Virus record (IMG/VR): IMGVR_UViG_2684622618_000022
From: a virus
Taxonomy: Duplodnaviria; Heunggongvirae; Uroviricota; Caudoviricetes
Length of the DNA stretch: 5,117 bases
Strand: one strand, 5' to 3'
Part shown: positions 2,612-4,321 of the stretch, piece by piece
Numbering within the stretch: position 1 is the stretch's first letter
Layout of the letters: each line of letters begins with the position of its first letter
Notes under the pieces: generated by a model
Database searches by the model: none
What the model saw: only the letters and a program-made list of their open reading frames with translations
What the model was told of the DNA's origin: nothing
Position numbers and translations under genes: made by a program

Positions 2612-3574
2612 ATGAGCAGCAAGCTTCATGGTCTTGTCTGGGAAGGGTGCGCCTTCACCGGCATGATCTTATCCAGGGTGGCGGTTATGGCCCGTCTTGC
2701 AGACTACAGCAATGACGAGGGCGTGTCATGGCCTGCCATTGAAACTATCCGGCGTCAGATCGGTGCAAGAAGTGAATCCACAGTGAAATCGGCTATTGCA
2801 GAACTGGCGAAAGAGGGCTGGCTGACGAAGGAAGAGCGTAAGGTCGGTGGGCGTAATGTAAGCAATATCTATCGGCTTAATGTGGAAAAACTCGAAGCAG
2901 CTGCTGCGGCGGCGCGTGAGTCATATAAACCGAAAAGAAAAATTAGCCCGGCAAAAAATGACCCGTTAACAGTTGACCCGTCAAATATTGCCCCCTCAAC
3001 GGTTGACCCGTCAAATTTTGATGGATCAACTGTTGATAACAAACTGCCGATTAGGGGGGCGATGATTGACCCCGATCCGTCAGTATTAAAACCTGATCCG
3101 TCAGATAAAAGATCTTCTTGTCCGGACGCTTCGCAACCGGACCCGCAGACGGCTGAACAGAATTTTTTAACCCGACACCCTGACGCGGTTGTGTTCAGTG
3201 CGAAAAAACGCCAGTGGGGAAGTCAGGAAGATTTGGTGTGCGCACAGTGGATCTGGGGACGAATCGTGAGTCTTTACGAGCAGGCGGCCAGCGATGATGG
3301 CGAGATCACGAGACCGAAAGAACCCAACTGGACTGCATGGGCCAATGACGTGCGGACAATGCGGATGCTGGATGGCAGAACTCACAGACAAATTTGTGAA
3401 ATGTTTGGGCGTCTCCAGCGGGATTCGTTCTGGGTAAAAAACATCATGAGTCCGGCAAAACTCCGGGAAAAATGGGATGAACTGGTTATCCGCCTGGGGC
3501 GTTCGCCCGCGCAGCGTTGCGTGAATCACATTTCTGAACCGGACACTGAAATACCGCCGGGATTCAGGGGGTGA
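2612..3574 (+). CDS. Phage replication initiator (lambda O / YdaU-like): N-terminal winged-helix domain, Asp/Pro-rich repetitive linker, DnaT-like C-terminus
   Basis: Track ORF 2597..3574 (GTG); I prefer the in-frame ATG at 2612 with GGGGG 5 nt upstream. N-terminus (LADYSNDEGVSWPAIETIRRQIGARSESTVKSAIAELAKEGWL) looks like a wHTH. The C-terminal ...HISEPDTEIPPGFRG matches my recollection of the E. coli DnaT C-terminus (...SEPDSQIPPGFRG). Gene order initiator then DnaC-like mirrors host dnaT-dnaC. Confidence 0.8.
   Translation: MSSKLHGLVWEGCAFTGMILSRVAVMARLADYSNDEGVSWPAIETIRRQIGARSESTVKSAIAELAKEGWLTKEERKVGGRNVSNIYRLNVEKLEAAAAAARESYKPKRKISPAKNDPLTVDPSNIAPSTVDPSNFDGSTVDNKLPIRGAMIDPDPSVLKPDPSDKRSSCPDASQPDPQTAEQNFLTRHPDAVVFSAKKRQWGSQEDLVCAQWIWGRIVSLYEQAASDDGEITRPKEPNWTAWANDVRTMRMLDGRTHRQICEMFGRLQRDSFWVKNIMSPAKLREKWDELVIRLGRSPAQRCVNHISEPDTEIPPGFRG
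2959..3112 (+). repeat. Iteron-like direct repeats inside the initiator gene; candidate prophage replication origin
   Basis: TGACCCGT at 2959-2966, 2974-2981 and 3004-3011. Near-identical 23-mers AACAGTTGACCCGTCAAATATTG (2968-2990) and AACGGTTGACCCGTCAAATTTTG (2998-3020), with a degenerate copy near 3027-3046. Second pair GATCCGTCAGTATTAAAA (3073-3090) and GATCCGTCAGATAAAAGA (3095-3112). They encode the TVDPSN-type linker repeats, as lambda ori iterons lie inside the O gene. Confidence 0.45.
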
Positions 3575-3580
3575 CGTGTC

Positions 3581-4321
3581 ATGAAAAACATTGCGGCAGT
3601 TGGGGTTCTTGAACGTATTCGCAGACTTGCACCACAGGGGGCGGTTCCACCGTACCGGACGGTGGAGGAGTGGCGGGAATGGCAACTTGCTGAAGGACGA
3701 AAACGCAGCGAGGAGATTAACCGCCTGAATCATCAGGTGCGGGTTGAAAAAATCCTGAACCGTGCGGGCATCCAGCCGCTTCACAGGAAGTGCTCATTCG
3801 GGAACTACCGGGTGCAGAACGACGGTCAGCGCCATGCTCTGAGCCAGGCGAAATCCATTGCCGATGAATTGATGACCGGATGTACAAACTTCGTGTTCAG
3901 CGGTAAACCTGGTACCGGTAAAAATCACCTGGCAGCAGCGATTGGCAATCGGCTGATGGCGAAGGGGAGAAGCGTGATTATCGTCACCGTGTCCGATGTC
4001 ATGAGCGTGTTGCATGACGGCTACGACAACGGCCAGTCCGGGGAAAAATTTTTACAGGAGCTTTGTGGAGTTGACCTTCTGGTCCTTGATGAAATTGGCA
4101 TGCAGCGGGATACGCGCAACGAGCAGGTCACGCTGAACCAGATAGTCGACCGCAGAACGGCTTCGATGCGTAGTGTCGGAATGCTGACGAACCTGAATCA
4201 CGCAGCGATGAGCACACTCCTCGGAGATCGGGTGATGGACCGTATGACCATGAATGGTGGTCGTTGGGTGAATTTTAACTGGGAGAGCTGGCGGTCAAAC
4301 GTTGGACGTCAGGGTATGTGA
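3581..4321 (+). CDS. DnaC-like helicase loader (AAA+ ATPase; YdaV-like prophage DnaC paralogue), 246 aa
   Basis: Track ORF 3581..4321. Walker A FSGKPGTGKNHLAAAIG and Walker B LLVLDEIG. Collinear similarity to E. coli DnaC as I recall it (IQPLHRKCSFGNYRV..., LNQIVDRR..., GMLTNLN..., LLGDRVMDRM..., WVNFNWESWRS). Starts 7 nt after the initiator stop. Confidence 0.9.
   Translation: MKNIAAVGVLERIRRLAPQGAVPPYRTVEEWREWQLAEGRKRSEEINRLNHQVRVEKILNRAGIQPLHRKCSFGNYRVQNDGQRHALSQAKSIADELMTGCTNFVFSGKPGTGKNHLAAAIGNRLMAKGRSVIIVTVSDVMSVLHDGYDNGQSGEKFLQELCGVDLLVLDEIGMQRDTRNEQVTLNQIVDRRTASMRSVGMLTNLNHAAMSTLLGDRVMDRMTMNGGRWVNFNWESWRSNVGRQGM

Follow-up and report, generated by a model that had tools for sequence, protein, structure and literature searches.

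DnaT and DnaC have narrow and nearly identical distributions. How DnaT of Escherichia coli recruits DnaB and DnaC is described as unknown by the Keck laboratory (PMC11087952, 2024, and PMC13377028, 2026), and the DnaC substitution A84T blocks only the PriA/PriB/DnaT route (PMC11087952). In phage lambda, the C-terminal region of the initiator O binds the loader P, and the Oam29 mutant, which makes 294 of the 299 residues of O, is null (PMC6022878), so that the extreme C-terminus of O is essential in this P-type system. It is already known that lambdoid prophages carry DnaC-type loaders, and that some phage initiators contain a DnaT domain ('primosomal protein I'; gp43 of phage phiV10, of the HAMAP DnaT family; DopC, PMC5509034). 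Brezellec 2017 is the only relevant paper that we found linking DnaT, lambdoid phages and DnaC. Here we describe a replication module in a window of 5117 bases (the whole stretch of DNA analysed, IMG/VR record IMGVR_UViG_2684622618_000022), in which an initiator ends in a DnaT-type tail directly upstream of a DnaC paralogue. The class of this tail goes with the type of loader encoded next to it. In the literature searched, the tail is not described as a separate motif, nor is its presence on O-type initiators or YdaU without a DnaT domain, nor a one-to-one relation with loader type.

The window is 99.9% identical to the prophage adjoining ynfA/ynfB/speG in E. coli O157:H7-type genomes, and at least 80% of it is present in 457 genomes. 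We read the locus as a lambdoid replication module, belonging to a Rac/Qin-like prophage of E. coli O157:H7.

A DnaT-like tail at the end of the initiator

The initiator gene (2612..3574, plus strand) encodes 320 residues, as supported by the list of open reading frames (ORFs), RefSeq entry WP_000095669.1, homologues and the AlphaFold (AF2) model. The RefSeq protein starts at the same ATG at 2612 and is annotated only as 'helix-turn-helix domain-containing protein'; a longer ORF of 325 residues begins at a GTG at 2597, and its residues 305-325 are residues 300-320 in the 320-residue numbering used here. A database search returned 911 homologues.

The 320-residue ORF ends ...QRCVNHISEPDTEIPPGFRG, the tail peptide reading, as a longer stretch, RSPAQRCVNHISEPDTEIPPGFRG. 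Residues 302-320 (RCVNHISEPDTEIPPGFRG; 3515..3571, plus strand), recognised by their DnaT matches and predicted to be disordered, constitute the tail. A sequence-only reading of this DNA had noticed that the initiator ends like DnaT, and indeed 13 of the last 18 residues are identical to those of E. coli DnaT (our reference sequence being 100% identical to PDB 9zbt chain D), the motif being exactly C-terminal in both proteins. In a phmmer search against the entire PDB, only initiator residues 300-320 aligned, and this to the last 21 residues of DnaT (2ru8_A, E=0.0098; also 9zbt_D, residues 159-179). Likewise, the NCBIfam DnaT equivalog model NF002770 matched the tail at profile positions 159-179 of 179 only (E=0.0042; 16.7 bits, far under the 201-bit cutoff). 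Taken alone this match is statistically modest; it recurs, however, in hundreds of loci and is therefore not a chance match. The consensus of the dereplicated tails is R-D/C-V/P-N-x-I/V-S-x-P-D-x-x-I-P-x-G-F-R-G-COOH, and the initiator of the window carries the form VNxVSEPDxxIPPGFRG-COOH.

The resemblance stops there. The sequence-only reading had spoken of a DnaT-type module and had made this depend on an alignment reaching past the terminal motif. The likeness holds for the last ~19 residues, but nothing upstream of them is DnaT-like: PF17948, the DnaT domain, had no match in the initiator even at E<=10, a search that did find DnaT and one phage DnaT-domain protein, and profile comparison of the initiator C-terminal domain with that of DnaT gave a probability of 0.5%. 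Since PF17948 spans DnaT residues 89-154, no Pfam model covers the tail. The initiator lacks the DnaT parts in contact with PriA (the C-terminal domain) and PriB (the linker; PMC13377028).

At the DNA level, a three-way alignment of the window with Rac ydaU-ydaV and K-12 dnaT-dnaC shows homology from a point some 18 codons short of the stop, across the stop and a short spacer, to the loader start ATGAAAAAY, with nothing alignable upstream. The invariant tail codons differ at synonymous sites, which indicates purifying selection on the peptide. The suggestion that this is a prophage copy of the host dnaT-dnaC arrangement thus survives as colinearity of tail, stop and loader start with the K-12 DNA. 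The direction of copying is doubtful, because the same pair of tail and loader occurs in Rac (YdaU/YdaV) and in many phages and because DnaC is itself held to be of phage origin (PMC5509034).

Tail class goes with loader type

A scan of viral contigs for the initiator gave near-identical loci only, and species-level genomes were used for diversity: 82 loci, one genome per species, with the loader sought within 3.5 kb. In these counts, which like those below ignore shared ancestry, a lambda-P-like gene came next in 13 of the 13 loci with an xWExxL or TDWIxG tail. None of the 51 GFRx tails had a P-like gene next; one preceded a DnaC-like gene, and for the other 50 no loader lay within 3.5 kb. 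The WxxIW class had neither a DnaC-like nor a P-like gene within that distance in 15 of 15 loci. In one locus classed as 'other' (L116), the initiator is frameshifted; its downstream C-terminal fragment has GFRG as its end, with a DnaC-like gene next. The WxxIW tails, of the form ...W(A/N)xIWxQxxEQ..., were seen on this initiator family in members of Providencia, Proteus, Yersinia, Buttiauxella and Edwardsiella (L104, L106-L112, L115, L146, L148, L154-L157 and L164).

Looking upstream of the loaders gave the same picture: ...IS[EQ]PDKxIP[SA]GFRG precedes 78 of 80 Klebsiella-type DnaC-like genes, and ...LDLTNTDWIYGVDL (the TDWIYGVDL type) precedes 79 of 80 lambda P genes. On viral contigs with enough sequence downstream to judge, a DnaC-like gene comes directly after roughly 40% of the GFRG carriers, and P after none. 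Among 246 dereplicated, distinct initiator/loader pairs, the GFRG tail went with a DnaC-like loader in 83 cases, with no loader in 103 and with P in 0; P-type tails went with a P loader in 55 of 55.

One N-domain cluster combined with one C-domain type carries both kinds of tail, and the loader goes with the tail. Similarly, proteins with the DnaT C-terminal domain but without a GFRG tail have a P-like gene next in 12 of 12 cases, against 0 of 66 for those with the tail. Protein gp43 of phiV10 is the mirror case of our initiator: it has a DnaT domain and the tail HWNSPEAWEDFL, of a class that lambda-O-type C-domains also carry, with the P-like gp44 next. An Aeromonas phage and two Vibrio phages have more distant DnaC-like loaders, and there too the preceding tails resemble the motif (KPPGFN, KPEGWA, LPERRG).

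The tail as a portable element

When the C-termini of 120 close initiator homologues were compared, a conserved body was found to be followed by one of several unrelated tails: ...SEPDxxIPPGFRG, ...DYSxIPxGFRG/S, ...HWNSPEAWENTL or WNTPEGWRDVL, and ...TNWIDGIEDDLVxAGVLP. The DnaT-type tail also occurs on proteins with the same N-domain and a completely different C-domain (P0070 and P0083; this second C-domain also in L165 and L285), on initiators with other N-domains (L165; Klebsiella phage ST13-OXA48phi12.4), on the DUF1376 protein YdaU of Rac, and, in phages, on proteins that have the whole DnaT domain (L201 type). To judge by these sequences, the tail is a real, portable element found on at least four unrelated C-terminal domains. 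Distant kinship of the second C-domain type with the DnaT C-terminal domain was considered and dropped, hhalign giving only 16% probability over 28 columns. The P-type tail HWNSPEAWExxL is found both on lambda-O-type C-domains (L087-L089) and on the DnaT-domain protein gp43 (phiV10; L531, 1964-3573), each time before a P-like gene, so that P-type tails too have been shuffled as modules.

Several further observations were made in the course of this survey. In Vibrio and Aeromonas phages, initiators located before distant DnaC/IstB-like loaders (L286, 1680-2420; L287, 1581-2375; L533, 1880-2797) end ...VNHIGTNFEKPEGWA, ...DVSKYQLPERRG and ...GEYGEKPPGFN, respectively; in these hosts, which lie outside Enterobacterales, such ends may represent degenerate forms related to the GFRG tail. 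Phage records H63 (KY271401.1, Klebsiella phage 1 LV-2017), H106, H110 and H113 label such initiators 'primosomal protein I'. The initiator of KY271401.1 has a lambda-O-type C-domain, and its P0100-type chromosomal homologues end ...DYSLPENSGFRT; if the phage protein ends in the same way, the tail by itself may have given rise to the label. Initiators of Escherichia/Enterobacter-type prophages were also found in assemblies assigned to Bacillota, Veillonella parvula, Vagococcus and Chryseobacterium (L094, L097, L130, L162), a finding that most likely reflects contamination or mis-binning of the assemblies.

Domains of the initiator and the candidate origin

In the AF2 model of the initiator, residues 1-105 fold as a winged helix, residues 108-169 are disordered, a helical C-domain spans about 175-297, and the tail is again disordered. 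The N-terminal winged-helix DNA-binding domain (2612..2926, plus strand; Pfam and model) is of the HTH_36 type, a family different from the lambda O N-domain PF04492. The C-terminal helical domain (3134..3502, plus strand) is of the lambda O type: tblastn matched it with 34-38% identity (E about 1e-18) to protein O of lambda, phage 21, 933W and HK225, and it has in common with lambda O the motifs WG..EDL..A.W, PNW..WAN..R.M, DGR.H and FW..N..SP.KLR.KW. The tail has a predicted local distance difference test score (pLDDT) below 50, and in neither predicted model is it packed against the C-domain.

The candidate origin lies inside the initiator gene (2960..3103) and comprises five iteron-like GAYCCGTYA repeats, starting at 2960, 2975, 3005, 3074 and 3095, against 0.14 expected; none of 200 shuffles reached five. 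Inverted and direct repeats are present in the region as well. The iteron-like repeats fall in the part coding for the disordered linker, a layout as in ori-lambda within gene O. The sequence-only reading had proposed an iteron-binding winged helix-turn-helix, and the initiator does have an N-terminal winged helix and iterons in its own gene; the winged helix would bind the five iterons. The initiator is therefore a mosaic, its four parts being an HTH_36 winged helix, a linker coded by the iteron region, a C-domain of the lambda O type and the DnaT-type tail.

The helicase loader

A stop TGA and a spacer of 6 nucleotides (3572..3580, plus strand, seen in the sequence and in the three-way DNA alignment) separate the initiator from the loader gene (3581..4321, plus strand), which encodes a DnaC-type loader paralogue of 246 residues, identified by NCBIfam, PF01695 (E=1.5e-19) and its identity to DnaC and YdaV. 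RefSeq labels it 'ATP-binding protein'. It aligns to E. coli DnaC (6qel_G) with 252 bits over residues 2-241, an alignment that begins at residue 2 and takes in the N-terminal domain, and is 49% identical to K-12 DnaC and 79% to Rac YdaV. The protein passed the cutoff of the prophage paralogue subfamily NF009043 (500.5 bits, cutoff 389) and scored under that of the DnaC equivalog NF005931 (309.4 bits, cutoff 357); judged by these family scores, it is a YdaV-like DnaC paralogue and not chromosomal DnaC itself. Walker A (GKPGTGKN, residues 108-115, 3902..3925, plus strand) and Walker B (LLVLDE, residues 166-171, 4076..4093, plus strand) were read from the sequence and align to the Walker A and to LLVIDE of DnaC, so that the full-length DnaC-like loader with intact motifs of the sequence-only reading is confirmed, as is the adjacency of host dnaT and dnaC, which lie 2 nucleotides apart. 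Among the DnaC residues reported to bind DnaB (Ludlam et al. 2001), R10, W32 and S41 are unchanged in the loader, whose differences at L11 and L44 are conservative. DnaC A84 is conserved as A86 of the loader, within a kept GQxxALSxA context.

The initiator and loader share a reading frame, with only the TGA and the codons CGT GTC between them (3572-3583), and one read-through event or stop-codon mutation would join the tail to the N-terminus of the loader. A 308-residue DnaC-like protein (P0210) was considered as a possible natural fusion and rejected, its extension being C-terminal, into the DUF1627 gene, and not N-terminal.

Gene order and prophage context

The first block of the window (937-1863, minus strand) consists of a ParE/PaaA2 toxin-antitoxin pair and a small DicA-like regulator. 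The toxin belongs to the ParE family (PF05016) and the antitoxin is of the PaaA2 type (PF21217); a small upstream ORF has weak similarity to the DicA C-terminus (NF007257, E=1.8e-6). The block occupies the usual place of the lambdoid repressor, divergent from the Cro/YdaS-like gene. It resembles the three-gene PaaR2-PaaA2-ParE2 arrangement of O157:H7, and perhaps doubles as the immunity repressor. On the plus strand, the YdaS/Cro-like gene (1898-2200) and the YdaT-like gene (2197-2589; PF15943, E=3.3e-12, reported for the YdaS/YdaT block; RefSeq 'toxin YdaT family protein') directly precede the initiator. The YdaT-like gene contains 50 N at 2301-2350, where the matching stretch of NZ_CP022689.1 is 32 nucleotides longer; sequence is thus masked or missing, and the YdaT-like translation is incomplete in the window. 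Downstream of the loader lies the DUF1627 gene (4347-5116), in two overlapping frames (4347-4526 and 4448-5116), a frameshifted pseudogene according to RefSeq. A Pfam scan found no P-like gene in the window. The gene order matches that of the racR-ydaS-ydaT-ydaU-ydaV-ydaW block of K-12 Rac, and the locus is in this sense an ordinary, very common Rac-like replication module.

A possible mechanism and its alternatives

We propose, with moderate confidence, that the tail is a short linear motif coupling the origin-bound initiator to DnaC-type helicase loading; a service of the tail in such loading is supported indirectly by its co-occurrence with the loader type. According to this model, the winged helix would bind the iterons within its own gene, the lambda-O-type C-domain would organise the origin complex, and the disordered tail would dock on a DnaC-family loader or on the DnaB6-loader6 complex. 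In the window, the partner of the tail would be the phage's own DnaC paralogue, whose conserved N-terminal domain would bind host DnaB and whose AAA+ domain would load it. In relatives that lack a loader, the same tail would recruit the host DnaB-DnaC, and at restart forks the tail of DnaT would do likewise. With this in mind, one may speculate further, tentatively and at somewhat less than even chances, that the ~19-residue tail R-D-V-N-x-V-S-E-P-D-x-x-I-P-P-G-F-R-G might be the missing link from DnaT to DnaB6-DnaC6, a loader-specific docking peptide shuffled by phages among unrelated initiators, much as other tails go with lambda-P-type loaders, and that host dnaT-dnaC might descend from a phage cassette of initiator tail plus DnaC loader.

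Several points weigh against this proposal. The Keck group favours the N-terminal domain of DnaT for the recruitment of DnaB/DnaC (PMC11087952 and PMC13377028). The DnaT tail has been given other roles: its 18 residues contribute to DnaT-DnaT association, since their removal turns trimers into dimers and the core 1-161 forms dimers (Szymanski 2013, as summarised in PMC5314882), and they take part in cooperative binding of single-stranded DNA (ssDNA), dT30 being bound more weakly and with less cooperativity by DnaT 84-153 than by 84-179 (PMC4132743). The DNA that codes for the tail borders on the loader gene, and linkage alone would give some co-occurrence; the counts of tails and loaders are not phylogenetically independent. 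Finally, a DnaC-like gene is missing from the neighbourhood of about half of the GFRG-tailed initiators, which shows that the tail is not confined to the phage paralogue as partner; any host factor could take this part.

The published properties of the DnaT tail would suit a self-association or ssDNA-cooperativity element that builds an oligomeric origin complex without any loader specificity, all the more as O-type initiators must oligomerise on their iterons (general knowledge of the lambda O-some; PMC6022878). We nevertheless regard this as unlikely. At least four unrelated preceding domains carry the tail, and each would need its own docking site; oligomerisation is needed as well in P-type modules whose N- and C-domains are the same, yet these never carry a GFRG tail; and the tail is predicted to be disordered and unpacked. 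The published roles fit poorly with a tail that is found on four scaffolds and excluded from P-type modules. No more probable is a tail that binds host DnaB, or another part of the host replisome such as primase or SSB, instead of a DnaC-family loader, with the O-P contact making it needless in P-type modules. The 103 of 186 GFRG-tailed initiators that lack a phage loader do require a host partner, and DnaC was never shown to bind DnaT (PMC11087952); the partner could thus be DnaB or a composite DnaB-DnaC surface instead of DnaC. However, an invariant helicase would not require tails that switch class with the loader family. P-type tail classes recur across scaffolds (HWNSPEAWExxL on the lambda-O C-domain and the DnaT C-terminal domain), always with P, and the distant Aeromonas and Vibrio DnaC-like loaders still follow motif-like tails.

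The near-identity of the tail to the DnaT terminus, above all in Rac YdaU (RQVNTVSLPDSAIPPGFRG versus RDVNTVSEPDSQIPPGFRG), raises the idea that it mimics DnaT and plugs the initiator into the host restart primosome, through PriA, PriB or, by co-oligomerisation, host DnaT, with the origin being treated as a stalled fork. The part of the tail in DnaT-DnaT association would agree with this. Yet the sections consulted of the preprimosome paper (PMC13377028) name the three-helix C-terminal domain as the PriA contact and the linker as the PriB contact and leave the tail unmentioned, the DnaT chain sequence filed for the mature-complex entry 9zbu stops at residue 154, and the strict exclusion from P-type modules is left unexplained, all of which makes this mimicry more doubtful still. 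We consider it very improbable that the tail is a functionless 5' flank hitch-hiking with a mobile dnaC-like cassette. The tail-coding DNA does lie 6 nucleotides from the loader ATG, and the homology blocks begin just upstream, but I-P-x-G-F-R-G is invariant beside unrelated genes in the 103 loader-less modules and is kept in host DnaT too, which argues against pure hitch-hiking, as does the purifying selection seen in the synonymous changes of its invariant codons.

Implications

The comparative pattern points to a peptide, DnaT 161-179, rather than to the N-terminal domain favoured in the Keck-laboratory papers, and so offers a specific and cheaply testable candidate for the handover from the preprimosome (PriA/PriB/DnaT) to DnaB-DnaC. 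It also suggests a rule for reading lambdoid modules, by which the last ~15-20 residues of the initiator would predict the loader system of the phage, and may explain how the many prophage initiators without a loader gene can still work. A functional reading would thereby be given to Rac YdaU/YdaV and to thousands of genes of O157 and other E. coli prophages labelled 'helix-turn-helix' and 'ATP-binding'. Should the hypothesis on the tail be wrong, what remains is an ordinary Rac-like replication module.

Comparison with known systems

SSB's C-terminal tail, a short conserved peptide that recruits many documented partners, resembles the GFRG tail in the proposed working mode only: both end a disordered C-terminus, the GFRG tail would likewise recruit a partner protein, and the two have no sequence similarity. 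The SSB-Ct is mentioned in PMC4129139. Closer are gp43 of phiV10 and its counterparts in epsilon15 and SPN1S ('primosomal protein I') and DopC of Cellvibrionales, which are O-like initiators with a borrowed piece shared with DnaT (PMC5509034), some of them having an HTH_36-type N-domain like that of our initiator. This group, however, carries the DnaT domain PF17948, whereas the protein of the window carries only the tail, and its members with P-like loaders (phiV10 gp44, the DopE pairs) have no GFRG tail.

With lambda O-P and ori-lambda, the module of the window shares an N-terminal origin-binding domain, iterons in the initiator's own gene, a flexible linker and a homologous C-domain, and in both the loader gene comes directly next, in lambda after the essential extreme C-terminus of O. 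The two differ in the N-domain (PF04492 in O, HTH_36 here), in the tail (...LDLTNTDWIYGVDL in O) and in the loader, P (PF06992) being unrelated to the AAA+ DnaC family to which the DnaC/IstB-type loader of the window belongs. With E. coli dnaT-dnaC, the last ~19 residues, the stop, the short spacer (6 nucleotides here) and the start of the 49% identical loader are colinear. DnaT, on the other hand, is built of a Phd-like N-domain (PMC5509034) and the three-helix ssDNA-binding domain PF17948, neither of which is present in the initiator of the window, and works with PriA/PriB at forks, not at iterons.

The closest relative is the ydaS-ydaT-ydaU-ydaV segment of K-12 Rac. We found no experimental work in the literature searched on the function of YdaU/YdaV or of the pair in the window; one interactome preprint presents ydaV as a fimbrial chaperone, which is irrelevant here. 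Rac has the same gene order as the window, its YdaV is the 79% identical counterpart of the loader, and YdaU ends RQVNTVSLPDSAIPPGFRG 6 nucleotides before ydaV, like the junction of the window. Upstream of this shared end the two initiators differ, YdaU having a DUF1376 N-domain and another C-domain, and the initiator of the window an HTH_36 domain and a lambda-O-type C-domain.

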